Shown here piece by piece: positions 43,187-64,000 of a stretch of 64,000 nucleotides of DNA. Both the position numbers and the translations under genes were made by a program. Numbering within the stretch: the first letter of the stretch is position 1; every line of letters starts with the position of its first letter. Source of the DNA: Haliotis rufescens (taxonomy: Eukaryota); the NCBI RefSeq assembly GCF_023055435.1, contig NW_025963835.1, positions 2,046,001-2,110,000 on the forward strand, written 5' to 3'. The notes below the pieces were generated by a model. The model was not told where the DNA came from. It saw only the letters and a list, made by a program, of their open reading frames with translations, and did not search any database.

Positions 43187-46100
43187 ATGGATTCTGATGT
43201 TGAAAATACGGAGAGGCAGTTTGATGGCATCACTATCAGTGATAAGAGACCATTCAAAGGTGTGCAACACTGGCAATATGTGGCGTCACTCTGGCAAAGT
43301 TTGGGTGGGGTTTGAAACATTGTAGGATTTCATTTTCTGTACATACTTTTGATATGTCTAAGAAAAAAATATTGTTGTGGTCCATATCAGTCATTCGATG
43401 GTATTTATCATGAAGCTGTAAAATCCCTATGAATTCAGATAACGATGATAACTTTATACGATATATCCAGCTAGGCTAGATATCAGGCCTCTAAAGACCG
43501 TGAACGGTGGAATTAGTTTCCCTGGGAAACCAACTGGCAGGCACACTGCCCCTGTCAGGACTTTCATCTGATAAGGTCTCTTACTGTCCAACAAATGACC
43601 ATGCCGATACTCTGCTATGTACCAGATGTTCAATAGTCAAAACAGGATTAGTCCCATTCGCTGTCTGGGCTGCGTGTAGAGGGGGCAAGGGCCCTGAGCT
43701 AATGATGAGCCTAACCAGCCTGACTGTGCCAGGATCACCAAAACCCTCTTTGCTGCGTTTTATATTTTAATCTGTACATAATAATTTTTTAAAAAATAAA
43801 ACAGGCTGATGAAATCATATTCATGTAAAGCATAATTATATACAATTGCTATTTAGTGTGAAGATCCTGGGTAGAATAGATCTTCAGCAACCCATCCTTG
43901 CTGTAAAAGGCGACTATATGCTTGTCATAAGAGACGACTAACGGGATCGAGGGGCCAGGCTCGCTGACTTGGTTGATGCATGTCATCGATCTCAGACTCA
44001 ATTATTTACAGACAGCTGTCATATAGCTGTAATAATGCTGAGTGTGGCGTTAAACAACCAACAAACATAATCTTACATGTTGAACATTACACAATCTCAT
44101 TAAACATGTTAAAATCAGATCTTAGTTCTCGCTATCGCAGTTTTTCCATACATGAAAGTTGATTTATTATCTCAAATTTCGAGTTATGACAGATGTGTAT
44201 TTATGTTTATGTATATTTATCACAACAGAAGTGGTATAAGTAGCAAATCTAGTGTGGAAGTAGTTATTTGCAATGACAAATGTATATTGTCGGAATCCTA
44301 GATGCCATTTTGAGACTGTTCATTATAATGCTGACATACCAATATTTATTAACTGGTACTATTGTATCCTTATTTCCACAGACGTCAAGCTGGAATAACA
44401 AACAATTTTAATTTATTGTAGAAGTAGTACTTTTTCTTTGAAGAATGTTCATTGTAGTTTTGCTGAATATTTCCAGCAACTTGCAAATATTTATATTTAT
44501 GTATGATTATTCCTGGAGGACATGCACATACTACTGTACAACCAACATTTATTGTGTAGAAATAAGTGTTTGCTTTCAGCAGTGGTAATTAATATTGCTG
44601 TTTTCATGCTGAATACCTTGGCACAATTGATCATTCGTATAAAAAACCCACCCTGAACAGCAAGCATAATACATTTTTCGTACTTGTTAAACTTTCCCCT
44701 GCTATCTATAATTATATAGAATTATGTGTAAATACATATTGTCTGTTGGTGATTGACTACATGATACTGACTCGGTGACATAGGGACATGTATATAGTGT
44801 ATAAAGTGTATTGTGAGTTTTTCCTTGTTTACCATACCAAAGAGGCAAGTAGACTAGAGAAACAGACTTTCACAAGTCTCTAAAGCAACTATCAATCTTT
44901 TAAATAATAATTTCTAGATTATATAAATAATGATATGTTGTCCTATAAAAGACTTGCATCCTCAGACTGACCGCTTATCTAGACTTGCCTATTATAAGGA
45001 CAGAACGACTTTACACCCATGGACTTATTCAATACAAGGAGCAAGGCTAACAGCAGACAGTGGGGAGATGCTTGAGATTGGGAGACAGGCAGCAGAAGCA
45101 AGCTCCCACTGTGAATAAACAAAGAGGTCATTCCAGCCATCATAGTCCCGTCGCTCTTATCAGTAGATTCCAAATCTCATGTCCGCCTGTCACTTACATT
45201 TTGATAAACTATTAGCAACCATTTTTTTATGCTCATGATATCAATCCCTGGATTGTCTGGTCCAGACTCCATAATTTACAGACCACTAGAATATTGCTGA
45301 GTGCACCGTTAAACAAAAAACGATGTAAATTAAACATGTTAAATGTTCTCCATCACATCCACAGAAGTTCAGAATTTGCGGCATGAATCCCCTACATCCA
45401 TTAAACCACCGAGGAAAGACAGCCACCCCTCGAGTTCCGATGGTGACCACCAGGTGGATGAGCAGGTCATGTTCAACAAACTGGTCACCAGGGCCAAGAA
45501 GCTGGCTTCTCACGGCCAGGTCGAGAGAGCCCTGGAGTTCAACAAGCGGGCCCTGAGGATTCACTACACAGAGAAGTTGGCAAAACGGATCAAGAAAATG
45601 GAGGTAGTGATTGGATTTATGTGGACCTGCTCATGGGCTATTTGGCACCATGTCTGCAGTTCATGTCAGTATAATTTCCAAATTTGGATTTCCCAAATGA
45701 TGAAAAGTAATAATGGTATCAGGCCTATTTCTCCTTTACCGTGACCCTCCCCTGATCCTATTCCCCCCAGGAAGCTGGCTTCTCATTCGTACAACATAAC
45801 ATGGTTTAATTAGAATAACAAATAAATTATCAGATGACAGATGACATTTGGGGGAGGGGGGGGACAGATGACATTTGGGGGAGGGGGGGGACAGATGACA
45901 TTGGGGTGGGGATAGACAGATGACATTGGGGTGGGGGGACAGATGACATTGGGGTGGGGGGAGACTGATGACATTGGGGTGGGGGGGAGACAGATGACAC
46001 GGGGGGGGAGACAGATAACATGGGGGTGGGGGGAGACAGATGACATTGGGGTGGGGGGACAGATGACATTGGGGTGGGGGGAGACTGATGACATTGGGGT

Positions 46101-49100
46101 GGGGGGGGAGACAGATGACATGGGGTGGGGGGAGACAGATGACATGGGGGTGGGGGGAGACAGATGACATGGGGGTGGGGGGAGACAGATGACATGGGGG
46201 TGGGGGGAGACAGATGACATGGGGGTGGGGGGAGACAGATGACATTGGGGTGGGGGGAGACAGATGACATTGGGGTGGGGGGAGACAGATGACATAGGGG
46301 TGGGGGGAGACAGATGACATTGGGGTGGGGGGAGACAGATGACATTGGGGTGGAGATAGACAGATGACATTGGTGTGGGGGGGAGACATATGACATAGGG
46401 GTTGGGGGAGACAGATGACATTTGGAGGGGGGGACAGATGACATTGGGGTGGGGATAGACAGATGACATTGGGGTGGGGGGAGACAGATGACATTGTGGT
46501 GGGGTGTGAGGCCTAGACTCAGTAATATCTAATGTCAGAGCTACAGTTAAGCTGCATATTTGCGTAAAATACCACCCCACCCCCCCACCCCCAAACTATT
46601 CAAAACCTAATTACCTTCAGTTAATTTGCGTACAGAAACACATGCATTAAATGAAAAACTCAATTGTTTGAAAACAGAACGTATAAATACCCATCCAAAG
46701 AAGCATTTTCAGCATGCGTACATGGGAGCTAATTTCCGAAACACAATTACGAGCTAATTTACTTTCCGAGTAAAGCCTATATTTAGAACTTTCTTCTTTC
46801 TTTTTTTAAATCTCAAAATGCTTACTCATTTTGGGAAAAACCCAAGATGCCCAATAGAGTGATGAATAGATGAGTTAAAAAATATTGGTTACCCAATGAA
46901 AAATGAAATAACACAATTAAAAAAAAACCTTCGAGTGAAAACTCAATTGCTCAAAATGTTATCTGGAGCTCTGAATGTTATGGCTTTGTAAGCTTGTATT
47001 TCACTGACAAATTACCGATTTTCTTCCAAATTGACTGCCAAGGACACTTAGTTTAATTCCCATGCATGTTGATTTCCAGGCCTACCTGACCCAGTATGGT
47101 GGGGGGAGCTCGGAGGAGGATGACGGCACCATGGAACATCTTGGCGAGGGTTTCTACCTGTACAGGGAGTTCTATGAGAGAATCTACATGCATCAGAAGG
47201 AAGGCCTGCTGTGGTTCTGGGACCTCTTCAGGAAGAAGAAGGGCGGCATTCTGGGAGATGACATGGGGTAAACAAATTCATATTCAAAACTTATGGGAGT
47301 GGGATTCTTGAGCCCCAAATAAATTATTATGGTTATTTTTTTCATATTATACATTTATATACTGCACTCATCTCTGCTCAAATTCAGTTTATATGTTTGT
47401 TCCCAGATCAGCAAGATCAGTGGATCTGTATGAATTCCATTTATTATTTTCAACTCCCTGGGGAGTATTCAATCCAAGCTGCCTAAAGACACCAGATGGA
47501 TTTTATGTCCACCTCCCTTATTGACATATTTGAACTAAGTCACTATGGTGACACCACAAGTTTTCACACTTGTGTTTTAGGTGCATTTACATGTACATGT
47601 TGCCACCATGGGGGTGAAGTGGGTTCTTTTGAGTTAACAATGTGAAAGCATAGCTCCAGATAACTTTTTGAGCAATTGAGTTATAACCCAAAGATTTCTA
47701 TTTTAATTGGGTTATTACATTTTTCATTGGGTAACCAATATTTTTTCACTCATCTATTCATCACTTTTAATTGTGTTTTTTCGCAAAATGAGTAAGCATT
47801 TTGAGATTTAAAAAAAAATTAAACAATCCTAAATATTGGCTTGACTCAGAAAGTAAATGAGCTCGTAATTGTGTTTCGGAAATTAGCTCAGTTGTACGCA
47901 TGCTGTTGTACGCAAAAAATTCATTGGGTATTTACGCGTTCTGTTTTCAAACAATTGAGTTTTCCATTTAATGCATGTGTTGGTGAACGCAAGGTTATAG
48001 AAAGTAATTGAGTTTTGAATAGTTTTGGGGGGTATTTTTACACAAATACACAGCTTATCTGTAGCTCAGTGAAAGTGTTGTATTACTTGTGTTTCAGGAA
48101 ACCCAGCCTAGTACGAGCACCTTATGGTGCCACTTTGGCAAATGTTTGGTAGCATAATTCTTTTATCAACATGTTCAATGTTTCTTCTTATTTTAGTTAT
48201 TTGTTTATGTTTTTGAAAGTTCGAGTTTTTTCTTGTTACTTCGATTATATATTTTCTATTCGGTTATTTTCTCGTTACTTCAAATATTATCTCATAATTT
48301 CTATTATTTTCTCATTATCTGATTATTTCAAGTTTATTTTAAAAAAACCTCAATATTTCAGAAAGTTTTCGCTGCTTTCGATTATTTTTCGTTAGAGTTT
48401 TTTCTCGTTATTTTGATTATTTTCTAGTAATTTCTGTTGCTTTCTCGTTACTTCAAGTTTATTTAAGAAACTAGAATTTTATGCTTATCCTGCATTACTC
48501 CTTATTGCATTCACTGCTTACCTTATGACAACAATTTGCTGCTGCGATGGTCTTTGGTGAAGAAATAAAGATGTTTCTATATTCCACTCCTGCTTTTTGT
48601 ATAGATCATCGCCGCTGGACATCTCTCAGCAGGGCTCTTCAAATTGGATATTTTTAGACCTTTCGTTTGGCTATTATTCTAAATTTATATACGATTGGTG
48701 ATGTATTCTTTTCATTTTACATCACTGATTTGTGTATTATTATGTGGGTGATTTTGGTGTGAAAAGACTGTCACGTGGCTCGTTGTTTTGAATTTGTTAC
48801 AATTGTTTACTTGCAAGGGTAGTGAAATTGTTCACAATTCTTAGCTACTTATATTTAACATATACATGTTTTTAAATACTAGAAGCTTTGGCGTTACATA
48901 GAGTTTGCATCTGAGTTCAAGCGCCTGCTCCTATGTCAACCTTGGTCTTCTAGCTCTCAGTTCAATGAACAGATCTCAGACACACACGGCTGTTAATTAC
49001 CTTTATGGCCCTTTCCAATGTTGGCCCTGGTTAGTCCTTCTCTCACTCAACACCACTGACAGTTCATGTCAAATCCCCGCCATCCATAAACACGCTGCTT

Positions 49101-52100
49101 CCTTTCCTTATTTTTCCCATCTCTACCTCAGCTTCCGCTCACGCATGCGTACACGTAGTCAAGTTCAGAGGTCACTTCCAGTACACTCGAATGTAAATAT
49201 ACTACACAATGTGGTTAGGACTGACATGTTATCACAGCAAAGTTTCCAACTTATGCCAGGGATGAGACCGCGCACAAGGTTCTAGAACACGACTCTCAAG
49301 TCTATCCCAGCTGGTTGGCAGGTTGGGCAATTTCAATCCAAGACTCTATTCTCTCAAGGAAGGTCAAGACCAGGATTCTTTTTGTGGAAGAGGACATGGC
49401 AGAGGTAAACCTCAGGGCTCTTATCACTCCCGCCATGTAAATACCTGGGGAAGTGATACGAGGGGTACATACACTGAAGTGTTGGACAGTCACGACTGGG
49501 AACTGCCCCTAGTCATCCCAATTGTTGACACCCCAGTGGGCGGGAGACTGAATCTGTTCTGGAAGAACTGGACCATTCTCAAGGATGACTTTGTACTCAA
49601 CATAATACGTCATGGCTACCGTTTCACACACAAGCATATCAGTTACTGCGTCAGAGGTTCAGGCAACCAAACATCGACCTGTTTGCAGCTTGCAAAACCA
49701 CCAACTTATGACGTATGTCTCCCTGTTACCGGATCAGCAGGCTTGGGCGGTGAATGCATTCAGCTTCCTTTAGGAAGGCCTAAAAGCGTAAGGTTTTCCA
49801 CCACCTGTTATACTTCCCAAGGTGATACAAAAGATCAAGGAGACAAGGAATCTTGCTCCGACTTTGGTCGCGCCCTGGTGGCCGACGAGAGGGCGGTTTG
49901 TCGAGCTCAGAAGAAGATCCACTCCCCCTCCCACAGTGGTCCAACCTACTCATCCGCCCTCACAACAAACTGCCTCACCCTCAAGGTTTACGAGGGCCCC
50001 CCCTTTGAGCCCCTCGACGCATCCTTTTTTCATGACCTCACCAAGAAAACAATATTTCTCGTGGCATTAGCCATGGCAACATGGGTGAGCAAGCTACATG
50101 CTGGTCGACATCACCCTGGTCCTATATGGGCATGGTACGCACGGAGCGTATCGGGTTGTGCTTGGTTTATATAGCACCCAATCGTTCATTCACTATCACA
50201 CCAATATCAATGATTGTGGGTGCTGAAGATAAGGGTGAACTGCACTTGTGCCCAGTACGAGCACTTCGAGGTTTCATCCGCCATTCCAAAACTAGACGTG
50301 GTTTGAGGAAACGGTTATTCATACCCGTATCTCCTACGTCCACGACAGAAGTTAGACGCAACACCATATGGTTACGCGCAGTCATCCTTCAGGCTTATGA
50401 GATCACCAAACGTGATCCTCCGAGAGCAAATAATCCTCCCGAGATCAGGGTGTTATCCTCTACCATGGCGTTACATAGTAACTGTTCTACTAAATCGATC
50501 ATGGAAAGATGTTTTTGGAGGTCCAACACAGTTTTCGCCAGTCATTGTCTTCATGATGGGGCTCTTGAAGCAGTCGAGGGCATGCAAAGTTTTGGTCCTC
50601 TGGTAGTAGCCCAGCAGGTAACCAACCCTTGACGCAAATAATGAACTCGTCCTATACGGAGCCAGTCTACTTCCCGCACAAGTCACTGAGACACAGCCAG
50701 TGGAAGAAATTAAGCTTTTTTATCAGGCTTTGGCCCGGTGACATAGTGGGTAAAGATTTTTATCTGTGAAGCTAGTATTCTTTATTACCAAATATGTTTA
50801 GGGTCTTACCCTTTAATTCCTATAATCCTTTTGTATTAACCCTACCGTTATGATGTTTTTCTGAGCTTTTTCCGCCTCACGTATTATTGACAAACATGTG
50901 TTGTTGTTTTGGGGTGTGAATTATTGAGTTTTTTTACTTCTGAAGGTTACCCACCTCCAAACTGTCATTATTACAGATGCATTAAGGAGTAATGCAGGAT
51001 AAGAAAAAATTTAGTGAAATTTAAATAATTTTTACATTTGTATACTTATCCTGCATTACTAAGTTTAAGGACACATCTGTCGCAGACTTGCCTTCCCACT
51101 TTGGATTCAAGTTTGTTTTTAAGCTTGGGCGACAGGCAGTGATGTAAGGAAGGTGACATGTCATTAAGGTCACATGACAGCATGATGGTCCATGCAAAAA
51201 GCAGGAGTAGAATGTGAAACACCTTTATTTCTTCACTCAAGACCATCACCGAGCGCTGTCTTTTTGTTGTCGTAAGTTAAGCAGTGAATGCATTAAGGGG
51301 TTGTGCAGGATATGTATACAAATGTAAAAAATATTTAGATTTTACTAAAATTTCGAGTTTTTTCTTGATGCTTCGATTATTGTAGAAAAAGAACTCGAAA
51401 TTTCAAGTTAATAATTGAAATAACAAGTAATTTTTATTTGAAAAAATTAAAGTTATGCTACCAAAGTGGCACCATTAGGCTTTCGTAGCCACGCTGTTGT
51501 TCACTTGCACCCAAATGTTTTTTAAAAAAGCTGGAAACCCATCCTTAACATTTGGAGAAAAATCAGATGTTTTACATATCATTGTTATCTACAAATTTGA
51601 GAAACCTTTCAGCCTATGTGAGTTTTTACATCTTACAAACTATTTGAGTGAATCATTATTAAAAACATTATTAACATGGTTAAAGCGTCTCCACGTCATG
51701 CCAAGAGCCCGGGTTTGATTCCCCACATGGGTACAATGTGGAAAGCCTGCTTTCTGGTGATGCTCTCTGGCCTTGATATAGCTTGACTGTTAAAAGTGGT
51801 GTAAAACATACTCACTCACTTGGTTGGTTGCATGTCATCCCACCCCAAAGGCGTGGATCATTGCTCACAATAATAACTACTGAATTGTCTGGCCCAGACT
51901 TGATAATCTACAGGCTGCTGTCATATACTGTAGCCATGATAGCTGGAATATTGCTGAGTGCGGCACACAATACAGATGAACACTTGAACGACAAAAAACA
52001 AATTATAAAGATTTAGGGTAAGCCCCCCATTAAACCACACATTTTTTAAGCCTTAACACTAAAAAGAACCATTCATGAAGATTCGGGTTGGGACTATGCT

Positions 52101-55100
52101 TACCTTAAAAGGCGACTATGCTGTCGTAAGAGGCGACTAATGGGGTCAAACTTGGTGACTTGGTTGATGCATGTCATCGTATCCCAATTGCGTAGGTCAA
52201 TGCTTATGATGTTAATCACTGAATCGTCTTGTCCAGACTCGATTATTTGCAGACCGCTGTCACATAGCTGGAATATTGCTGTTAACAACAAACAGACCAA
52301 CAAAACAAATAGAATAATGTCATGAAACAGTCCTCTTGAGCATGTTGAGTTTTATACGTGTTATATTTTCAAACAAGTTAACATTTTAACGTTTTTTTCT
52401 TTGGTAAGATTTAGGGTAGGTTTGTCAAAATTGGTGTGGCCTTGACATAATCAATAAATGTTTCAGATTAGGAAAGACGATCCAGGTGATTGGGTTTCTG
52501 TCTGGGATGTTTGACATGGACAAGATCAAGTCGGTGTTGATTGTGATGCCTGTGTCTGTCATCCCCAACTGGGAGAAAGAATTCAGCAAATGGTGGGTGG
52601 TATATGTAGGAGATAAATGTGTAATTTTATTTGCAGCCGTTTATTGTGATTGTTATTATTTCTTCCTGGAAATGACAATGTTAGCTGGTATGCTATGATG
52701 TGACGAAACAAAAGATGACATCATATGTTTCATGATAAATTTAAGATATATAGTGGACTTCTGATTGGTGGCTTGAGTTGTTGCCTGTGTTTGGTGATAA
52801 AACTTGCAACAAGAAAACTGGGACAATTTCTTGTCCTTTAATGAACAAGAGGAAGAAATATGATCATTGACAAACTAGCAAGCGTTACTAACAATCCAAT
52901 AGCTACTCTCCAAACTGGAGTGCTTCTTCCTCTATTTTCATTCCTCAGTTTACCCACTGGTAAGGAGACCGCCTCCGTGGTCTAGTGGTAGAGCCTCCAC
53001 CCGGAGATAGGAAGGTCCAGGGTTCGATCCCCGTCTGGGTCATACCAAAAGATATTAAAAGATGGTACTTGTTGTTACCCTGCCTGTCGCTTGGCATTAA
53101 GGGGCTAAAACTGTGAGTGGGATATTCATGTTTAACTGCGGTATGGTATCTCAGTGGGCTAGCACTATAAATCGGCATCAGTCAGGACTAGTACATGCAG
53201 CCACACGCACACACACACGTGCATGCATGTCACTATATAAGTGCAATAATCTTACACGCGACGTCAAACTCCATTTCATCCCCCTCCCCCTACTGGTAAG
53301 GAGGATGGCAGTTTCCATACACTCCGGCTGATGTCTCATCATCCTCCGTAATATGAATGCTCTTGATCCGCCCCCGTACCTCACTGCACAAAACACCAGT
53401 TCCAGATCTGTATAGATTCCCCCAACGGAATATAATGTTATGAGAGTCTAACAGCTAGGTACAATCCATCTAGTCTGCAGCTCATTTTTGACTGGATTTT
53501 GTGGATTTTAGAGGGCATGAGCGGCCCAGTCATCTTAGGCGTCACAATTTGATATGCAGAGTTACATCCCCTGGGGATGCTAGGAATCTGTGATTGTGGG
53601 TTTGAATCCCATTCCAACCTGATTATGTTTGTAGGTTTGTCAGCAGCATACTCAGACTTTTGGGTCTCACCAAAGTGGTAACTGTCTGAGACCTGAATCA
53701 CTTTGGGCTTCCTCCCACATCAAGCTGACACCCAAGGATATAACTGGAATANNNNNNNNNNNNNNNNNNNNNNNNNNNNNNNNNNNNNNNNNNNNNNNNN
53801 NNNNNNNNNNNNNNNNNNNNNNNNNNNNNNNNNNNNNNNNNNNNNNNNNNNNNNNNNNNNNNNNNNNNNNNNNNNNNNNNNNNNNNNNNNNNNNNNNNNN
53901 GGGCTCCGGGTATCCGTGTGACGCTGTACCACGGCAACAGCAAGCGGGAGAAGGAGCGAGCTCTGGCCAAGGTGCAGCGGCGTAATGGTGTCTGTCTCAC
54001 ATCCTATGGTCTTGTTGTCACCAGCTCGACACAACTCACTCAGAAAGATGGAGCTGAATTTGTCTGGGTGAGCTCAGTGTTTGTTGTAGATGTCTTGTTA
54101 TTAATTCTACTTGTGGGCATGGTGGCCTCACTGCCTTAAATGCACTTGGACTTTGACAGTAATTAGTCAGAATTCGAACAACTGCAAGAACATAATCTTG
54201 ATTGAAGATGATTTTATGATAATCTCAATAATTGCTTGTTTTAGGCCTTATATTCTTTTTTAGTTGGTTTACAAGTCCAGCAGACAAAATAAACTGAACT
54301 TTGAAACAAATAAAATGACTTTTGAAAAAAATAATTTTGGGCGACACTGTTTTGCTTATTAGCATTGATTAGATGAAATGAAAAAAACGCACAAGGTTTT
54401 ATCATCGCTGTTAATAAAATATGGTGAATAAGCTATATAAAAATCTTTATTAAGATTATTAAAAAAAAACCTAACCAATTAAGTGTATTTTGGTGTCTTG
54501 CATGTTAAAATTTGTTTCTTTTTCATTGATTAGTAGCAGTCCTAATCATGCTATTCTGGAGGTTTAAATTGTGTCAATTCTTCGTCCGACCACCTTCATT
54601 GCATTTTTTTGACAATTATTTTGCAAAACAACCAATAAAAATTAAAAGGTCTTAGCTTGTGCTGGAAAGTTAACATATTGAGTTTATGTGATAAGATGCA
54701 ATAATACTTATTTTGATTCCAATTACGTTTTTACCTATTATACCATAATGAATAATTAGGTTTTTATCTTTATCCTGCCTCTGTACTTATATAAAAAATA
54801 AATGCCTACCGCCTCACATTTCTGAAACTATGTATGTTTGACTATTCCAGGACTATGTGATTCTGGACGAGGGCCACAAGATCAAGAACCCGACTAAGAC
54901 AACAAAAGGGGTTCACGCTATCGGTGCCCGGAACAGGATCATCCTGACTGGCACGCCGGTCCAGAACAATCTCAGGGTGAGTCACTGAGGAGTGCACAGA
55001 TGCCGCCTTTACCGTTTTGCCATAATAGTTAAGACTTGAGCCTAAAATTATACTATTACATTTGTCCTCCCCCAAATTGTGAATTTTGTCATTTTGTTCA

Positions 55101-58100
55101 CGAATTATTTACATGCATAAAATATCGCAGAGAGCAAGTTCTGAATATGACACTATGCTGATCAGTGAGACCATGCTTTCTATTCACATGGTGTTGAAAT
55201 GTAAGTCCCACAATGATACAAGGTCTCTGACTGGTGGTGATGTTGAGACATATTGACCAAGCATTAATTAAATCAACAATTAAAATAAATATGGTAATGT
55301 GGGGGAAAACACACCATATTCCTTACAACAAAACACCTGGATCGCCTTTGAATGGACATCTCAAATAGTAGCTAAGAGGGAAAATATGTCAAATATGAAA
55401 ATGTCTTTGAAAAATGCATACTTTTATTCCATTATTTAAGCCTAATAAACTTGTACCGGTTGTTGAACCTAAACAAAGGCTTTGAATTGTTAGAGCAGTG
55501 TTTGAAATTAGGCATTAAAGTCAAAGGGCCATGTCAAGTCTTCAGGCTTATGAAAATAAAAGAATTGGTCTCAGGCAATGACTTTTGAAAATATAGTGCG
55601 GGTGGGCGTTTCTTTTGTTTTTTGTGCTTGTTCAAACTAGTATGTAACCAAGTAAACAGTTGTTTACCATCAACCTTGGAAAGGGCCTCCCTACATAAAC
55701 AAGCATGCAAACCCCCATTGGCACCATAATCATAGCACGAGATGCGCAGTAAAGCAGTGTGCCTGTAAAGGGAAGTAACTGTGTTATATTGGATTGCATT
55801 TTTTTTAAAGTAATAAAAACGAAACATTGGGCAGACTTTATGTGGGTGCGGTGGGCGGTGCCTATTTTTTTTTAGCCTTAGGTTAAAAGCTAAAGACTCC
55901 CTAGATTCAAATACTGCCGCTGTAGACTTCCAGGATCAAAGGATCCCCTTTAATTTCGAACACTCGAATTTAGGACTATCAGAAGCTGCATATTTTGAAA
56001 GCTTTTCTTATAAACATTGTGAGCGAGTGAGTGTGTTGGGGTTGGGTTTAACAGTATTCCAGTTATATCACAGTGTGTCAGCTTAATTTCAGAGGAAAGC
56101 CTGAAGTGATGCAGGTCTCGTTTGGTGAAACCAACGAGCATGTGTATGATGCTGATAAAACTAGAAACATAATCAGGACAAATCGCAAGCTTAGGTGTCT
56201 GGTGTGCGCAAGGGACGCAATTTCTGCAGTGAATTGCAGCACCTCAGACGACAGGGCCACCCGTGCTCCCTGCGGACATCATGCATGGATGGCAAACATT
56301 AAGATTTTGATGGAATCGGTACGGAAGTTTGAGTTAAATTCGGACGTAACGATCGAGGGAAATATGTTATACAAAAGAAGGTTACTCAATACAGATGTTG
56401 TGTTTGTTCAGGAGCTGTGGGCATTGTTTGACTTTGTGCACCAAGGACAGCTGCTGGGAACAGCCAGAACATTCAAGATGGAGTATGAAAACCCCATTAT
56501 AAGGGTAAGTAGTTGAGAGCATATTTATGTTTTTAAGAACCCATGATGATTCCTGGTTAGAATTGCTCCTTAGCAACCTTGCAGCGCTGTAGTTTGGCAC
56601 TAGTCCCATAGTCCTTGCCACACTACCCAATAGTTAAAGTAGTCTTCAGCAACCCATGCTTGCCGTAAAAAGGCAACTATGCTTGACTAACAACATGGAT
56701 TTCAATGTGCAGATTTCAGTCGACAGCAGGAATGCAAAGCATTTGTACCGCCAACTGGGTGGCCAGGACTGTGCACGAAAACGCAGCAGTAAAAACAGTG
56801 CGCCAAAACGCACCCAAATGAACATGAAATGGACATGAAAATATTGTGTTTCATGTGCAAGAGGCACTTAACATGTTACACGACTGATTTTGAGTACAGT
56901 TGTGAAAAAGTTGTCAGGTGGCAACATTTTTAGTCCCAGAAAGGGAATTTAGATTGGAAACGTTGTTATAAAACAACATAGCAACAGAGTTCACATATAA
57001 AAGTGAACTTATCCACAAATTGTTCATCATAGAAAATAGTGTAATTGATTAGATACATTAAAAGTTTGAACTTGTTTCTATAGTTTATATTTTTTAACTT
57101 ATCCTGCATTACTCCGTATTGCATTTACTGCTGTCTTTGACAGAGAGACGAACTGTGTGAGATCCAGCTGCTGAAGAAAGTTGTTTCCATCTGTCCAGGA
57201 AGCAGCGCCCCCTCCCACACAGTCGGCACGTGACCCGGAAGACATGACGTCATGTCAAAACTCATAACTGCTTTGTCAACCACATGGATCGGACGTGAAC
57301 TGTATCCCTCAGTGGAATTATTAAAGAGAGTTTACTTGGTCCTGACTTTCTTTCGTTTTCTACGACAAAAGTCTGCTGTATTACCTTTGCCTTCATTATA
57401 TTGTTAATTGGTAATGTTTCTCGCTCGGGTTCTGACTCTCGTCACGGTTTTTCCGAGCGTATTGTTGTTTCCCGCCATTTTGGTTTACCGCCATTTTTTC
57501 CCGCCCTGTTGCGATTCACTACATGTCCACGTACTTTCGTGTTTTGTGTCTTGAATTCGCTCTATGGTTGGAGTTTTACATTAAGTTTAATGATTGTTTT
57601 CGGCGTGTTTGAAGCGTAATTGTTTGCTCTTATTAACTTTGTAACAAGAATAAGTTATGTTGAGTTACATTATGTTTCACGTTGTGTGTTTACACATCGT
57701 TATGTTTTTTGCTTCAATTCCAGTATGTCTCGCTGCTCTCGCTGCCGAGGGAATAAATCTGGACGGGACCCCCACCCCTGCTGCCTGGACTGTACAACCC
57801 CGTGTACCCTCACAGAGCGTTGCAGTTATTGTAGTCCCCTGTCGCCAGTCGCCTTCACCGCCTACCTCAGAGTGTCTCGGAAACGATTCACCCAGCGTGT
57901 GCGTCGACTCGCCAACATGTCATCCAACGTAGAGTCTGCCTCCCATGGCACGACATCCGACCGTACACGGTCTCCTACACCACCCTTACCGTCATCTGCT
58001 TCGACATCATCGTCTGCAGCATCGCCCGTTTCGGGTTTCCTGTCACCTCTACCATCTACGACGACAACTCCGGCGCCTCTTGGTCCGGCGCCTCCGATGT

Positions 58101-61100
58101 ACCCGGCGCCTCTTGGTCCGGCGCCTCCGGCGCCTCTTGGTCCGGCGCCTCCGATCTACCCGGCGCCTCCGATCTACCCGGCGCCTCCGGCGCCTCTTGG
58201 TCCGGCGCCTCCGATCTACCCGGCGCCTCTTGGTCCGGCGCCTCCGATGTATCCGGCGCCTCTTGGTCCGGCGCCTCTGATGTCTTCGATGTATACGGCG
58301 CCTCTGACTACTTCGGCGCCTTTGACTTGTGCTGCGCCTCCTACTTATGGACATGCCCTTCCGTCATCGTTCATGGATCCATCTTGGATGCAAGCTTGGA
58401 TGCAGTCATTGTTTGCGCAAGCTCAACCCACCTCAGCGACGCCGACGGTGCCTCCTGCGACGCCGGCGACGCTGACGGCCCCGACTACTGCTACTGCCAT
58501 TCCTGAGGCCCCCTCCACATCGGGTGCTTCTCGGTCTCGAACATTGTACACCTCGTCGCCTCCGACTGTCTCTCGGCACTCGTCCAAGTCTGCTCGTTCC
58601 CGTCGTCGCTCTCGTAGTCGCTCTCGTAGTCACTCACCCGTACATAGACGACGACGTCGTTCCTCCTCCTCGGAAGGATCATTTCGCCCCAACTATGACC
58701 CTCCATCTCCCGAGATTGATACACACTTGGGCCTTTCACAGGTTGCTGATTGGTTGGCGGACCGTCTGGCCTCCGTCGCTCCCTCCCCGGGCTCCGATGT
58801 GGATAAAAAGTTGACGATCTGGTCTAATCCGACTTCTCTACCACCCGACCCAATGCTCACTGACCTGGTTACGGCGTTGGACGAGGACTTCGCTAAGTTG
58901 TCCCTCACGCCGTCGTTCAAGGCTCCGCGTTTCCGGCGGGAAGATTTCCCCGTCCACTCCTTCGACGTGGCCGACGGTGCACATATCCTGGACGAGGACT
59001 TACATCGAATGACCGGGTCTTCTCAGTCCGTCACCATACGTATGCCGGACTCCCGACTCGCTTTCGTGGAAACGGAACTGCGCCGTACTTTGAAGCCACT
59101 ATCTACACTTGCTTCATCTGCCAGAGCCATTGACCAGGATCTCGCTGAATCCAATCCTAACAGGATCGACCACTTGCGCACGGTTATGACGTTCCAACTT
59201 CGCCAGATCGATCACATGCGCAATCACCTGAGAGCTGCGCTTGCGGAGATCACCACTACTCGACGGTTGGGTTACTTGACTTCCACGGACTGGGATTCCG
59301 AATTCAAGCGTTCCTTACTACGACAACCTTGGTCGGGTCCTACCCTTTTTAATGGTGCTATCTCCGCTACCCACACCCGCGTCTCCAGTTTCGCCAGGGA
59401 TGAAACTGCTCTCAGAGCCTTGGAGCATGTAACACACCAATCAGCGGCCAAGTCCTCCAAAGGCAATTATAAACCACGCCGTTCCTCCCTCAAGGTCGTC
59501 TCCAAACATACCTCGCCCTTTCGTGGGACAGGGCGTGGTCGTGGTAGAGCCCGTGGCACTTACCAACCCCGAAGGGATCGTCGCCCCGGCAAGGGGGCCG
59601 ATTCCACCTCAAAGCGTTGACCGGCGGCACCTCAACGACTGGGACCTCCCACCCCCAGTCGTTCCGGTCACCGACACACCTGTGGGTGGGAGACTAGGCC
59701 GGTTTTGGAGAAACTGGTACATACTGGAGGACCCGTTCGTCACCGACATCCTCTGTCAGGGGTACCGGCTCCCATTGTCTGCGCTGCCTCCTCTGACGTC
59801 TACTCCGTCAACGGCCGCTTATTCACCCCACCAGCTTCGGCCCCTTCACGACAGCATCCTTTCCCTACTGCAGAAGGAGGCCATAGAGATCGTACACGAC
59901 CCGGCTCGACACCCAGGATTTTACTCTCCGGTGTTTCTGGTGCCCAAGAAGGGGACCACCAGCTGGCGCATGATACACAATCTCTCCACTTTCAACCGGC
60001 TCTACCTGGAACGTCCTCCCTACTTCCGAATGACGACGTTGCGACTGCTCAGGACGAGAATCTCAGCTGGCGATTCCCTGATCAGCCTCGACATCCAGGA
60101 CGCCTATCTTCATGTCCCCATCCACCCCAACGACCGGCGCTTCCTCAGGTTCCTTTTCAATGGTACCCATTACCAGTGGGCGGTCCTACCATTTGGAATT
60201 TCTACGGCCCCGTGGCTTTTCACACGGATCACCCGCCCGGTCGCCGCCTACCTACACCTGAGGAACATCAACTTCGATCCATACATCGACGATTGTCTCC
60301 TCAACAATCGGGACTCGGCGTTGCTACTGCGTCACAGGGATTTTACCCTGCGGCTCTTCAATCAGTTGGGTTGGATCGTCAATCAGACCAAGTCGGAGCT
60401 GATCCCATCGTTCCGTCTGCAGTTTATCGGGGGCCTGTTTCTCACGGATCTGGACCTCCTTCAAGTCCCCAGAGACAGGTGGTTGAAAATCCTCGCTCAT
60501 CTCTTCCCTGCCCTTCAACAGGCTCGAACTCTCCGCCAATGGCAGGTTCTATTGGGTCTCCTCACGTCGGCTCAAGACCTGACTGCCAGAGGTCGCCTCC
60601 AGCTCCGTCCAATTCAACGGTTTCTCGCACCCTTTATCCGGCAGCAGGATCCGGAGTCCCTCATCGTCCTCCCGGTCCACCTCCACCCCTTCCTCCGATG
60701 GTGGACGGTGGAATCGAACGTCTGCGGCGGCGTCTCCTTGACCGCGCTACAGCCCTCCCTCCACCTGTTCGTCGACGCATCCAAACAGGGTTGGGGGGCT
60801 CATCTGGGGACTCAAACAGTTGCAGGGCTGTGGTCAGGAGATCGACTCTTCTGGCACAGCAACAACCTCGAACTCGAAGCTCTCATACTGGCCGTCTCCC
60901 ACTGGCAGAGCATTCTCCGGCACGGCCAGTTGGCCATCTCCACGGACAACATCACCGTGGTGTGGTGTCTGAGGAATCAGGGTACTCTCCACTCTCAGTC
61001 CCTGCTCAACCAGACCTTCCGATTTTTCGACCTGGTGGACCGTTTAGACTTGCAATTCCTTGTTCAGCACATTCCAGGTTGCCGGAATGTTCTGGCAGAC

Positions 61101-63981
61101 GCTCTGTCCAGGCCGGACAAGGTGGCTCCCACCGAATGGCGACTCCACCCAGAGATCTTCACAGTCCTTTGTCAAACGATCGCCTCTCCAAACATCGATC
61201 TGTTCGCCACGTCTCAGAACTGCCAGCTGCCGACTTACATCTCGCCGGTCCCGGATCCGGCCGCTGTAGCAGTCGACGCCTTCAGTGTTCCCTGGGAGGG
61301 ATTAAGCGCGTACGCTTTTCCGCCTCCGGTTCTCCTTCCCAGGGTTCTTCAAAAGATCCAGGCCACTCGACACTTGACACTGATTTTGGTCGCGCCTTGG
61401 TGGCCGGCCAGAAGTTGGTTTGTCGACCTCCGAAACGTCGCCAGAGACAACCCTCTAGAACTGCCAGCGTGGTCCAACCTTCTGCTTCACCCACACAGTC
61501 GGTTGCCCCACCCAAGTCCCGCTCGGTTTCATCTGCACGCCTGGCACATCTGCAAAAAGCCCTAGGAGCCAAGGGCTATTCGACTAGAGCAGCCAAGGCT
61601 ATTGCTTTCGCCCATCGTCCATCTACACGGGGACTATATGATGATAAATGGTCCTCGTTCCAGGCGTTCTGCTCTGACAAGCATCAGGATCCGATGACGG
61701 CATCCCCGCAGTTCCTGGCTGAGTTTCTTCTGTACTTGCGCAGCACGCGTCGATTAAAAGGCTCTACCATCTCCACGTACCTGGTCGCCATTAACTCCGT
61801 CCTTGCCATTCCGGACGACCGGAGAATGACGAAAATTCCCGAACTCCAGGCTATGCTGCGCTCGTTTCGTCTCGACGACCAGAAAGCCAAGTTCAGACCG
61901 CCTGCGTGGGATCTGAATGTGGTCTTAAAGGCTCTTCGGGAGGCTCCCTTCGAACCACTCCACACGTCTTCCTTTTACGACTTAACGAAGAAGACGGTGT
62001 TTCTACTGGCCTTGGCTACTGCCGCCCGGGTTAGTGAGCTCCACGCCCTCGACGTCTCTCGGGTCAGGTTCGAACGCGGGACTCATGGAGCAGTTCATCT
62101 TGGGCTGTGCTTGGACTTCATCGCAAAGAATCAACTCCCCGGACAGCCTGATAGATCCTTCACCATCCCTCCACTTTCGTCGATTGTGGGTGCCGACGAC
62201 GTGGAGGAGCTCTTATTATGCCCAGTTAGGGCCCTGAAGGTTTTCCTGCGACGGTCTAAAGCCTGCCGTAAGTCTAGGAAACGCCTTTTCCTACCGGTCT
62301 CCCCTTCGTCGCTGTCGGAGGTCAGCCGGAATACTATCTCCCTGTGGCTCCGGGCGGTCATCCTCCAATCTTATAAAGTCGCCGGATTGGACCCCCCCAA
62401 GGCTAACAACCCCCACGAGATTCGGGCGGTCGCGTCTACCATGGCTCTGCACAGTAACTGTTCCCTCAAATCTATCATGGAAGGCTGTTTTTGGCGTTCC
62501 GACACCGTTTTCGCCAACCACTACCTCCGTGATGTAGCCTTGGAAGATGTCGCTGGCGTTCATAGCTTTGGTCCCCTGGTGGTAGCTCAACAGGTCACCA
62601 ACCCCCGACGCCACTGATTCTCCGTTACCCTGAGCGGGGCCCGTCGACCTCTCTGGTGTTTATCACCACAGATTAGAGGGCTCTACTGCGTTCCGCATTC
62701 GCTCTTAGGTCAGTGCTAGTTTTGGCATTCCCGCCTCATACTATTTCTGTCAACTATTTCGGGTTCCCTCTTTTGCATCGACTCTCGTTTCCTTTCACAG
62801 GAATGGTCGCTGGTGTTCCGGTCATCGCTTGTCCATGCGGTGCGATTTCATCGGACCTTTGTCGAGGGTTTTCTTCTGGCTCACATCTGAAGGTATGCCC
62901 ACCGGCCGTGCCGTCTGATAAAGATGCAATACGGAGTAATGCAGGATAAGTTAAAAAATTTAGTAAAATCTAAATATTTTTTACATTTGTATACTTATCC
63001 TGCATTACGAAGTCTAAGTGCCCCCCCTGCGCTCCGCTTCCTCCCCACGAAGTTTCCGATGTTATGTTAAAGCAGTTATGAGTTTTGACATGACGTCATG
63101 TCTTCCGGGTCACGTGCCGACTGTGTGGGAGGGGGCGCTGCTTCCTGGACAGATGGAAACAACTTTCTTCAGCAGCTGGATCTCACACAGTTCGTCTCTC
63201 TGTCAAAGACAGCAGTAAATGCAATACGGAGTAATGCAGGATAAGTATACAAATGTAAAAAATATTTAGATTTTACTAATGTTTTGAATTTAGGGGTTAT
63301 CTTCACTCCACTGGGTGTCAACAGATATTTTGCAAATTCTTTAATGCTTTTAATCAAGGTGCTTACATGATTTGATGCACTTCGCGGGGTAAGACCCGTT
63401 TTATTGCAATATAGACATTGATTATAGAGCAGATCTTCCAGACTGGGCGCCGCCATTTTGTTTGAAACAGCAAGTGATATGAGAGATGGAATCTGATTGG
63501 TTAATAGGAGGAACATAGAAGGGACATAACTCGTAATAATCACTGGTGGCGCAAAGAACGAGCCTGGAAATTCCAGCCTTGTTCGACGGGTAGAAACTTC
63601 TTTAGTCAGTTAACGCCCTTGCCTCGTGAAGATTATGGATATCAGTACCTTGATTGTTTGCGACAATGCGTTCATGTGACATCAAAAACAATTTAAATAG
63701 GTGGACAATTTTTATAATGCTCAGTTGGAATTACTGAAATACTTTCACCTATATACCTTATGGGTAAATACAGCAATACTCAGTCTGTGAAAGTTATTTG
63801 TGATGTTTCAGTCTCGAGAGCGTGATGCCACAGCCGGTGAGAGACGACTTGGGCAGGAGATGGCGGAGAGCTTGAAGAAGATCATTGAGCCGTTCTTCCT
63901 TCGAAGAACCAAAGCTGAGGTGACTGACAAGAAGAACAAAGGAGGAGAAGAAACTGAAGATGGGAAGAAACATCTCACTAA
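43187..63981 (+). CDS. ERCC6L: ERCC6L/PICH SNF2-family DNA translocase, 5' part (gene continues beyond the window)
   Basis: Phase-compatible exons 43187-43259 (least certain), 45365-45603 (TPR-like ...RALEFNKRALRIHYTEKLAKRIKKME), 47080-47267 (HQKEG..GGILGDDMG), 52467-52592 (LGKTIQVIGFLSGMFD), 53902-54067, 54851-54976 (DYVILDEGHKIKN..LTGTPVQNNL), 56412-56504 (ELWALFDF..FKMEYENPI) and 63812-63981 (..IIEPFFLRRTK). The N-terminal TPR and the SGMFD/FKMEYENPI motifs match PICH rather than CSB. Confidence 0.9.
43858..44068 (+). mobile_element. SINE-like family B with internal deletion
   Basis: Family B consensus at both ends. Confidence 0.75.
45829..46505. repeat. G-rich ~24-25-bp minisatellite (GACAGATGACATTGGGGTGGGGGGA)
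   Basis: Read directly from the sequence. It gives the spurious Pro-rich minus-strand ORFs. Confidence 0.95.
46536..46973 (+). mobile_element. MITE with CAGAGCT termini, copy 1
   Basis: CAGAGCTACAG...CTGGAGCTCTG, flanked by a 5-bp duplication AATGT. An inverted paralog starts at 47649. Confidence 0.8.
47649..48069 (-). mobile_element. MITE with CAGAGCT termini, copy 2 (inverted)
   Basis: Reverse-complement homolog of 46536-46973, flanked by a 6-bp duplication TGAAAG. Confidence 0.8.
48112..51487. mobile_element. MITE with internal ~21-bp repeats (TTTTCTCGTTATTTCGA), split by the deleted DIRS element
   Basis: Inverted ends CCTTATGGTGCCACTTTGG..TAGCATAA / TTATGCTACCAAAGTGGCACCATTAGG. The repeat array continues on both sides of the DIRS insert. 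Confidence 0.65.
48475..51349 (+). mobile_element. Internally deleted, degenerate DIRS1-type retrotransposon (2.9 kb)
   Basis: Diverged ITRs (~48484-48615 and ~51182-51313), ICR 50977-51059 and a right extension. Remnants of the gag end, pol N-terminus (DTPVGGRL..FWKNW), MT domain (PNIDLFA, VAPWWP) and YR (DLTKKTIFLVALA, CPVRAL, FGPLVVAQQVTNP). RT and RNaseH are deleted. Confidence 0.92.
51678..52305 (+). mobile_element. Cluster of degenerate SINE A and SINE B fragments
   Basis: GGTTAAAGCG..GTCATGCC..GGGTTTGATTCCCCACATGGGTACAATGTG (family A). Family B cores at ~51830 and 52075-52300. Confidence 0.7.
52968..53291 (+). mobile_element. tRNA-headed SINE family D (resembles the mollusc RUDI/Meta-domain type) with TSD
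   Basis: A box TGGTCTAGTGG, B box GGTTCGATCCC, core GGGTCATACCAAAAGA..AAAAGATGGTAC, and a 12-bp TSD ACTGGTAAGGAG. Confidence 0.85.
53515..53751 (+). mobile_element. SINE family C truncated by the assembly gap
   Basis: GGCCCAGTCATCTTAGGCG...GTGGGTTTGAATCCC...CTCCCACATCAAGCTGACAC. Confidence 0.75.
53752..53900. other. Assembly gap (149 N) directly before an ERCC6L exon
   Basis: Run of N. Confidence 1.
56020..56270 (-). mobile_element. Degenerate SINE family C
   Basis: GAGTGAG..GGGTTTAAC..GTGTCAGCTTAAT..GAGGAAAGCCTGAAGTGATGCAGGTCTC...AAGGGACGCAA. Confidence 0.7.
57097..57274 (+). repeat. DIRS left ITR (178 bp)
   Basis: Appears to be the exact reverse complement of 63069-63246. Confidence 0.95.
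57725..59620 (+). CDS. gag: DIRS Gag-like ORF1 (N-terminal Cys/His zinc finger, Pro-rich repeat, RS/RG-rich regions)
   Basis: First ATG at 57725: MSRCSRC..HPCCLDC..C..CSYC. PAPLGPAPP repeats, and C-terminal PFRGTGRGRGR. Confidence 0.85.
   Translation: MSRCSRCRGNKSGRDPHPCCLDCTTPCTLTERCSYCSPLSPVAFTAYLRVSRKRFTQRVRRLANMSSNVESASHGTTSDRTRSPTPPLPSSASTSSSAASPVSGFLSPLPSTTTTPAPLGPAPPMYPAPLGPAPPAPLGPAPPIYPAPPIYPAPPAPLGPAPPIYPAPLGPAPPMYPAPLGPAPLMSSMYTAPLTTSAPLTCAAPPTYGHALPSSFMDPSWMQAWMQSLFAQAQPTSATPTVPPATPATLTAPTTATAIPEAPSTSGASRSRTLYTSSPPTVSRHSSKSARSRRRSRSRSRSHSPVHRRRRRSSSSEGSFRPNYDPPSPEIDTHLGLSQVADWLADRLASVAPSPGSDVDKKLTIWSNPTSLPPDPMLTDLVTALDEDFAKLSLTPSFKAPRFRREDFPVHSFDVADGAHILDEDLHRMTGSSQSVTIRMPDSRLAFVETELRRTLKPLSTLASSARAIDQDLAESNPNRIDHLRTVMTFQLRQIDHMRNHLRAALAEITTTRRLGYLTSTDWDSEFKRSLLRQPWSGPTLFNGAISATHTRVSSFARDETALRALEHVTHQSAAKSSKGNYKPRRSSLKVVSKHTSPFRGTGRGRGRARGTYQPRRDRRPGKGADSTSKR
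59523..61565 (+). CDS. pol: DIRS Pol: reverse transcriptase, RNase H and Dam-like methyltransferase domain
   Basis: RT motifs FYSPVFLVPKK, LDIQDAY, LPFG and YIDD. RNaseH motifs VDASKQGWG, NLELEA, TDN and NVLADALSR. MT-like motifs IDLFA, DAF..W and YAFPP. No early ATG. Confidence 0.95.
   Translation: MGQGVVVVEPVALTNPEGIVAPARGPIPPQSVDRRHLNDWDLPPPVVPVTDTPVGGRLGRFWRNWYILEDPFVTDILCQGYRLPLSALPPLTSTPSTAAYSPHQLRPLHDSILSLLQKEAIEIVHDPARHPGFYSPVFLVPKKGTTSWRMIHNLSTFNRLYLERPPYFRMTTLRLLRTRISAGDSLISLDIQDAYLHVPIHPNDRRFLRFLFNGTHYQWAVLPFGISTAPWLFTRITRPVAAYLHLRNINFDPYIDDCLLNNRDSALLLRHRDFTLRLFNQLGWIVNQTKSELIPSFRLQFIGGLFLTDLDLLQVPRDRWLKILAHLFPALQQARTLRQWQVLLGLLTSAQDLTARGRLQLRPIQRFLAPFIRQQDPESLIVLPVHLHPFLRWWTVESNVCGGVSLTALQPSLHLFVDASKQGWGAHLGTQTVAGLWSGDRLFWHSNNLELEALILAVSHWQSILRHGQLAISTDNITVVWCLRNQGTLHSQSLLNQTFRFFDLVDRLDLQFLVQHIPGCRNVLADALSRPDKVAPTEWRLHPEIFTVLCQTIASPNIDLFATSQNCQLPTYISPVPDPAAVAVDAFSVPWEGLSAYAFPPPVLLPRVLQKIQATRHLTLILVAPWWPARSWFVDLRNVARDNPLELPAWSNLLLHPHSRLPHPSPARFHLHAWHICKKP
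59705..62617 (+). CDS. DIRS tyrosine recombinase ORF (overlaps pol; SAM-like and catalytic domains from ~61520)
   Basis: Catalytic R (ATAARVSEL), K (FIAKN), CPVRAL, HxxR (HEIR), W and Y (FANHY). In frame with gag. Confidence 0.93.
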   Translation: MEKLVHTGGPVRHRHPLSGVPAPIVCAASSDVYSVNGRLFTPPASAPSRQHPFPTAEGGHRDRTRPGSTPRILLSGVSGAQEGDHQLAHDTQSLHFQPALPGTSSLLPNDDVATAQDENLSWRFPDQPRHPGRLSSCPHPPQRPALPQVPFQWYPLPVGGPTIWNFYGPVAFHTDHPPGRRLPTPEEHQLRSIHRRLSPQQSGLGVATASQGFYPAALQSVGLDRQSDQVGADPIVPSAVYRGPVSHGSGPPSSPQRQVVENPRSSLPCPSTGSNSPPMAGSIGSPHVGSRPDCQRSPPAPSNSTVSRTLYPAAGSGVPHRPPGPPPPLPPMVDGGIERLRRRLLDRATALPPPVRRRIQTGLGGSSGDSNSCRAVVRRSTLLAQQQPRTRSSHTGRLPLAEHSPARPVGHLHGQHHRGVVSEESGYSPLSVPAQPDLPIFRPGGPFRLAIPCSAHSRLPECSGRRSVQAGQGGSHRMATPPRDLHSPLSNDRLSKHRSVRHVSELPAADLHLAGPGSGRCSSRRLQCSLGGIKRVRFSASGSPSQGSSKDPGHSTLDTDFGRALVAGQKLVCRPPKRRQRQPSRTASVVQPSASPTQSVAPPKSRSVSSARLAHLQKALGAKGYSTRAAKAIAFAHRPSTRGLYDDKWSSFQAFCSDKHQDPMTASPQFLAEFLLYLRSTRRLKGSTISTYLVAINSVLAIPDDRRMTKIPELQAMLRSFRLDDQKAKFRPPAWDLNVVLKALREAPFEPLHTSSFYDLTKKTVFLLALATAARVSELHALDVSRVRFERGTHGAVHLGLCLDFIAKNQLPGQPDRSFTIPPLSSIVGADDVEELLLCPVRALKVFLRRSKACRKSRKRLFLPVSPSSLSEVSRNTISLWLRAVILQSYKVAGLDPPKANNPHEIRAVASTMALHSNCSLKSIMEGCFWRSDTVFANHYLRDVALEDVAGVHSFGPLVVAQQVTNPRRH
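62924..63008 (+). promoter_or_regulatory. DIRS internal complementary region (ICR)
   Basis: The 5' half is complementary to the element's left end (57089-57124) and the 3' half to the right end and extension (63231-63279). Confidence 0.95.
63069..63279 (-). repeat. DIRS right ITR (63069-63246) plus 33-nt right extension
   Basis: Inverted copy of the left ITR, followed by ATACAAATGTAAAAAATATTTAGATTTTACTAA. Confidence 0.95.
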
Positions 63982-64000
63982 GTACTTGCTGTTAATATTA

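Follow-up and report, generated by a model that had tools for sequence, protein, structure and literature searches.

The reverse transcriptase of an intact DIRS1-like retrotransposon in Haliotis rufescens is probably made as a Gag-Pol fusion through a low-level +1 frameshift at CCC_UUU_CGU (59516-59524), a reading to which we give a probability of roughly 80% on comparative sequence grounds. All positions refer to the window, that is, the whole 64-kb stretch of DNA that was analysed. The pol frame lies +1 to gag and lacks a usable ATG, and TTT CGN has been selectively retained across diverged families of these elements. The motif itself is already known, but its setting, the DIRS elements, is new, and there it is paired with likely readthrough of the gag stop codon.

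Architecture of the window element

The element lies on the + strand at approximately 57089-63280. Its left inverted terminal repeat (ITR; 57089-57274, + strand) pairs with 63069-63264, the inverted match covering 196 nt at 97%, and the right repeat together with its extension was placed at 63069-63280 (+ strand), the 3' limit being approximate. An internal complementary region (ICR; 62924-63008, + strand) is complementary to both termini (pairs I2 and I3). The ATT at 57089 probably forms the first bases of the element, this start being deduced from the ICR junction, and such a terminus is as listed for molluscan DIRS1-like elements in the published sections available to us.

ORF1, which is gag-like and ends in TGA, encodes 631 aa (frame 57620-59620, first ATG 57725, + strand) with Pro-rich repeats and a basic Gly/Arg tail; a Pfam search of the 631-aa protein matched no family, and the gag label was given by position alone. 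Tandem Pro-rich repeats with a spacing of 9 to 33 nt are seen within gag at 58035-58312. The pol frame (stop-to-stop 59433-61565, + strand) carries reverse transcriptase (RT), RNase H (RH) and methyltransferase-like (MT) domains. RVT_1 was matched above the cut-off (E 6e-18) and RT_RNaseH below it (E 5e-4), and the Dam profile gave no direct match to the window pol; the methyltransferase assignment is indirect, via P0074, to whose Dam-domain part the pol C-terminus is 36% identical (E 3e-24). The closest named homologues of the window pol are Haliotis proteins. The initial annotation had described pol as +1 to gag, open from 59433 and devoid of ATG until inside RT, past conserved N-terminal motifs, and these frames were confirmed: the first pol-frame ATG (59970) lies inside RT, 110 codons past the start (59640) of a conserved N-terminal segment with PVGGRL. 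Beyond its stop, the gag frame continues for 998 codons (59621-62617, + strand, first ATG 60539) and has a tyrosine recombinase (YR) at its end (Phage_integrase, E 2e-5 at residues 787-970, slightly below the cut-off), overlapping pol for about 650 codons.

With its ITRs, ICR, RT/RNase H, tyrosine recombinase and indirectly assigned MT, the element belongs to the DIRS1-like retrotransposons. Three ORFs, ITRs, an ICR, RT-RH-MT and YR are common to it and to the DIRS1-like elements described in the available sections of PMC3266345, PMC5633606 and PMC7192593. In contrast to the Mollusca of PMC3266345, which in the passages available are given as being without a long pol/YR overlap, the intact +1 families analysed here do have such an overlap.

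The window also holds a decayed DIRS relic, and both insertions appear to sit, sense-oriented, within introns of a host gene of the SNF2 family (45343-64000), whose exons at 47080-47265 and 52468-52590 match SNF2-rel_dom. We take this host gene to be ERCC6L-like. A simple tandem repeat array at 45736-46595 gives rise to long minus-strand pseudo-ORFs.

The TTT CGN motif in gag/pol overlaps

The predicted +1 site (59516-59525, CCC TTT CGT G, + strand) is in phase with gag and inside the gag/pol overlap. The initial annotation had placed CCC TTT CGT there in the gag frame, which holds at 59516-59524, and the GTG at 59523, named as the next pol codon, does sit in the pol frame. The homologous site of the relic, TCT TTT TGT (49377-49385, + strand), had been described as one CpG transition from UCU_UUU_CGU; the relic is related to family B, an aligned locus of which (L028) indeed reads TCT TTT CGT. 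The motif in one element is within chance, as shuffling places it in about 5 of 52 overlaps and a second in-frame TTT CG occurs in the window gag at 58682. Evidence beyond chance comes from comparison across families.

Searches of the element's own genome yielded 140 loci, some of them duplicated, and from a metagenome scan the best 80 of 431 confirmed loci were taken (34-54% pol identity). A filter that took no account of the motif retained 96 loci whose pol is in +1 (55 metagenomic, 41 from the own genome) and 13 whose pol is in -1. Of the 111 loci removed, 58 had no long ORF upstream that stops close to where pol starts, 34 had a broken pol, 13 were missing the pol N-terminus and six lay at contig ends. 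Family A copies with indels make up five of the 13 calls with pol in -1; these five were not counted as -1 families. Clustering of the +1 set at 80% pol identity, the first identifier being taken from each cluster, gave 52 representatives. A second set consisted of 24 MAG contigs, presumably host contaminants, and one viral locus, and 16 loci were left after the same filter. Near-complete DIRS elements lie within bacterial MAGs (L223-L242), probably as host contamination. Among viral contigs a single-protein query found no relatives, and an alignment query gave one distant locus, which was dropped.

Exactly one gag-frame TTT CGN lies in the overlap of 24 of the 52 dereplicated +1 elements, while codon shuffles of the same overlaps placed the motif in 5.05±2.0 (maximum 15 in 10,000). 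TTTCG was the top in-frame 5-mer of the overlaps (z 9.3) and occurred three times and not at all in the other two frames. Stricter clustering left the motif in 24/46, 16/32 (60% pol identity) and 11/22 (50%) elements, and none of 5000 shuffles reached the observed count at 60% or 50%. Within the last 150 gag codons, 24 of 3902 codon pairs inside the overlap form the motif, but on the 5' side of the last pol-frame stop only 2 of 3846 do so (p 1e-5), and in L175, L034 and L135 the pol frame opens just 2-7 codons ahead of it. All four CGN codons are found among the 24 motifs; the codon preceding TTT is NCN in 20 of them, against a background of 31%, and YCC in eight.

Each of the six local families that have intact +1 copies (A, B, C, D, E and H) carries the motif, as do two of the eight loci that had been excluded for short contigs. 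Seven of the 16 loci in the second set carry it (null 2.3±1.3, p 0.0017); seven of these 16 are >70% identical to earlier loci, and among the remaining nine it occurs in three. Family A keeps CCC TTT CGT in 23 of 26 loci, with two losses by deletion, one adjacent deletion and no synonymous change, a retention that has little power because the copies are 82-100% alike. In one family A copy (L013) a 10-nt deletion over the motif puts gag and pol in one frame. When branches were mapped on a quick pol tree, the motif was found on many deep branches, yet only six changes were needed. It is therefore probably old and its counts are non-independent, so that the p-values given here overstate the independence of related elements. 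A single ancestral origin would retain the frame relation whatever the function of the motif.

Pol could in principle be translated from a spliced or internally started RNA, with the pyrimidine-rich TTTCG forming part of a splice acceptor or of another RNA signal. In the window a pyrimidine run is followed by CAG 11 nt past the motif, several motif-less elements have the acceptor-like TTT CAG, and passages of PMC5633606 report shorter DIRS-1 mRNAs in Dictyostelium RNAi mutants. However, a YAG within 15 nt past the motif occurs in only 6 of the 24 elements, and the next AG mostly follows an A and keeps to no one phase (11, 8 and 5 cases in the three phases). By a crude score there is no strong donor within 300 nt of the window gag stop and none at a common position across families, and a crude scan for donors and acceptors gave no support for splicing into the recombinase frame. 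We thus regard such an RNA as an unlikely source of pol.

Somewhat less probable still is that the motif is a mere conserved Pro/Ser-Phe-Arg peptide of the Gag tail, pol being reached by leaky non-AUG initiation, reinitiation or another route. Phe-Arg is enriched in the Gly/Arg-rich tail (30/3902, as compared with 32/25961 upstream), and family G has a TTC CGC variant, as such a peptide would allow. Its synonymous spellings, however, are strongly avoided. TTT CGN accounts for 24 of the 30 Phe-Arg dipeptides in the 52 overlaps, where 10.3 were expected (binomial p 4e-7), the others being spelled TTC CGN (1), TTT AGR (3) and TTC AGR (2), whereas upstream gag uses TTT CGN in 14 of 32 (Fisher p 0.004). 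Families with pol in -1, moreover, carry a different signal suited to their frame. The check for codon-level conservation across many DIRS overlaps that the initial annotation had proposed was thus mostly passed: TTT CGN is favoured over its synonymous spellings, although the motif is not universal, being absent from 28 of the 52 +1 elements. On this comparative evidence, TTT CGN in DIRS gag/pol overlaps is a real, selected sequence signal.

In 15 of the 28 motif-less elements no candidate +1 site could be named, and a few of these 15 have TTT CAG. A pol-frame ATG ahead of the conserved N-terminus is found in 30 of the 52 elements, local families B and D included. In decayed family F, the seven broken copies seen have no TTT CG, the site reading TCT, CCT or TTT AGA, and the broken copies of decayed family G have TCC CGC or TTC CGC at a site resembling that of sister family D. 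CCC, TCC, TTT or ACC stands right before the gag stop in 13 of the 28 motif-less elements, which may shift at the stop itself. A clade comprising L122, L128, L155, L163, L164 and L185, as well as L165, L176 and L167, has gag ends of CCC TAG G or TCC TGA/TAG. Judged by eye, the pol-frame similarity of elements with such ends begins at the stop. For the window element a shift at the stop (CGU_UGA_C), as perhaps in relatives ending CCC UAG or UCC UGA, is nevertheless very improbable, as such a pre-stop codon is found in none of the 24 motif-bearing elements, the window element included (Fisher p 6e-5, a value inflated because 10 of 14 such rows fall in one clade). A UUCG tetraloop has a C-G closing pair, and this reading of the motif was set aside by reasoning, the flanks being U and any base.

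We return to the +1 shift at CCC_UUU_CGU. The initial annotation cited UUU_CGN as a +1 motif known from PA-X and the amalgaviruses, which matches the available text of PMC3498833 and PMC5052127. The site reads UCC_UUU_CGU in influenza A PA-X (PMC3498833) and UCC_UUU_CGG in human PLEKHM2 (PMC11451614), and in the accessible parts of these papers shifting is measured at about 1% (PMC3498833, PMC11451614) and reported as independent of 3' structure (PMC11451614). At the DIRS shift sites a 3' stimulatory structure was unsupported (mean z -0.38, p 0.28, 24 sites). As far as these sources describe them, PA-X and PLEKHM2 share with DIRS a zero-frame UUU_CGN core at the 5' end of the +1 ORF and a YCY-like codon before it. 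In contrast to both, the DIRS site is a predicted one and belongs to a retrotransposon, in which the shift would yield an essential polymerase; its preceding codon is NCY (CCC in 7, TCT in 6 and TCC in 1 of 24), the CCC of the window fitting YCC. The window site has the sequence features of the PA-X class, namely a zero-frame UUU_CGN in the overlap, YCC before it and conservation at the nucleotide level.

The amalgaviruses, according to sections of PMC5052127, resemble DIRS in that a structural ORF1 is fused to a +1 polymerase (RdRp), all four CGN codons are used, some members have a variant site and the shift was proposed from comparative evidence; they differ in being dsRNA viruses without a second recoding into a third ORF. 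Gag-Pol is likewise made by a +1 shift in the retrotransposons Ty1 and Ty3 (PMC5052127 and PMC5009743, available parts). Unlike DIRS, however, these are LTR elements with a DDE integrase, and they use different codons (CUU_AGG_C in Ty1) and a yeast-specific rare tRNA, at an efficiency of up to about 40%.

Taking PA-X and PLEKHM2 as models, tRNA-Phe on UUU in the P site, with CGN in the A site, would re-pair to UUC, and about 1% of ribosomes would then proceed in pol from GUG 59523, Phe being followed by Val. The majority would stay in gag for 33 codons more and terminate at its single UGA.

The gag stop codon and the recombinase frame

A likely readthrough signal at the gag stop, 100 bases 3' of the predicted frameshift site, was overlooked in the initial annotation. 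This single stop, CGT TGA CCG (59615-59623, + strand), is a predicted readthrough site. In the window, the post-stop frame has no stop over the 647 codons that overlap pol, where 500 synonymous shuffles of pol gave a mean of 18.9 and a minimum of 9, and its first ATG is codon 307. Past the gag stop, the same frame runs uninterrupted for 900 codons or more in 33 of the 52 elements; in another 15 it is open as far as the contig end, and in the remaining four it spans 552-827 codons.

The gag stops of the 52 elements are TGA in 38 and TAG in 14, with no TAA; TAA ends 13 of 31 recombinase frames, and a TAA gag stop occurs in one of the 16 loci of the second set. The base after the stop is C in 33 of the 38 TGA and G in 11 of the 14 TAG. 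The distance between the gag stop and the conserved start of pol varies from about -50 to +10 codons, so this stop context is not explained by a pol residue. Like TTT CGN, the stop signal has been selectively retained, as a lone stop in a leaky context separating two in-frame ORFs that selection keeps open. The window UGA CCG differs from the classic UGA CUA or CGG context. Viral readthrough of types II and III usually involves a 3' stimulatory structure. At the DIRS gag stops, the test for such a structure gave z values of -1.5 and -0.8 in the window and a mean z of -1.15 across the 52 elements, no lower than in flanking windows.

These frames and stop contexts are most simply explained by readthrough at the gag stop, with translation continuing in the recombinase frame, and we judge this likely. 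As in viral readthrough types I-III, in so far as the available sections of PMC13517186 describe them, UGA-C and UAG-G contexts, and one UAG CAA, occur at the gag stop and UAA is avoided. The DIRS elements differ from these viruses in that the product would be a recombinase ending a frame that overlaps pol for about 650 codons, that no 3' structure signal is found and that UGA CCG of the window falls outside the type II hexamers. A minority of ribosomes would insert a residue at UGA and extend Gag by 998 codons, ending in the tyrosine recombinase. One mRNA would then give abundant Gag together with minor Gag-Pol and minor Gag-linker-recombinase.

Frame-permuted relatives and a possible double recoding

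As judged from the frames and motifs of these elements, the candidate shift signal depends on which frame pol occupies relative to gag. The local families with pol in -1 (L205, L207 and L208) have a short overlap whose gag frame reads T TTT TTA, the heptamer of the HIV-1 shift site (as quoted in a passage of PMC3498833), and have no TTTCG in the 330 nt 5' of pol. Canonical -1 heptamers are found in only 8 of the 52 +1 overlaps. Inverted termini are present in L205 and L207. A short separate recombinase ORF accompanies T TTT TTA at the gag end in L205, L207, L208 and L212, of which L212 is broken.

In two further layouts gag and pol share one frame, split by TAG G in L126 and by TGA CTA in L178/L179, and a -1 heptamer (A AAA AAC and G GGA AAC, respectively) is placed for entry into the recombinase frame. 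In the intact local L197 family (L197, L198 and L210), CCT TTT CGC, about 270 nt before the pol match, leads from gag to the recombinase frame, and a second TTT CGA in the recombinase frame would lead into pol; its gag/pol overlap has no canonical -1 site. In two local families (L218, L195 and L217) the gag frame enters the recombinase frame without a stop, and both families have CCC TTT CAY in the overlap, seen as CAC or CAT in L218 and L217. L218 has a donor-like AG GTATGT near the expected position of the stop.

We lean, though not strongly, towards a general scheme in which all three DIRS proteins would be made from one mRNA by double recoding at the end of gag, with interchangeable parts. 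The common form would combine a +1 shift to pol, at UUU_CGN or at a slippery codon beside the stop, with readthrough to the recombinase. Frame-permuted relatives would use readthrough to pol and a -1 shift to the recombinase (L126; L178/L179), a -1 shift to pol (T TTT TTA) or UUU_CG to the recombinase frame (L197 family).

In a full-text literature search, none of the papers listed assigned UUU_CG or gag readthrough to DIRS elements; Poulter and Butler 2015 and the work of Goodwin and Poulter lay outside its reach, and a proposal of frameshifting or of readthrough in DIRS1 may already be found there. No DIRS translation mechanism is given in the available parts of PMC3266345 (with its supplements), PMC3783388, PMC6681497, PMC8547959, PMC7192593, PMC5633606 and PMC5009743. 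A passage of PMC13003380 quotes Poulter and Butler 2015 to the effect that programmed frameshifting is the probable route to the Ngaro recombinase, and the general idea of frameshifting is thus already in print.

A +1 slip together with readthrough would explain how the start-less pol and recombinase genes of DIRS elements are expressed, and it points to two exact codon-level sites that are open to reporter assay. The annotation of these elements would change as well: pol and the recombinase would have to be entered as fusions to Gag, and both frames of the 650-codon overlap would count as translated. The dozens of independently diverged natural variants would also serve to define the motif (NCY before, any CGN after, possibly CAY). 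If the frameshift reading is true, the UUU_CG class of +1 shifts, which comprises a few viruses and two vertebrate genes, gains a widespread group of transposons, and if the double-recoding reading is true, a PA-X-type shift operates in a widespread class of animal transposons.
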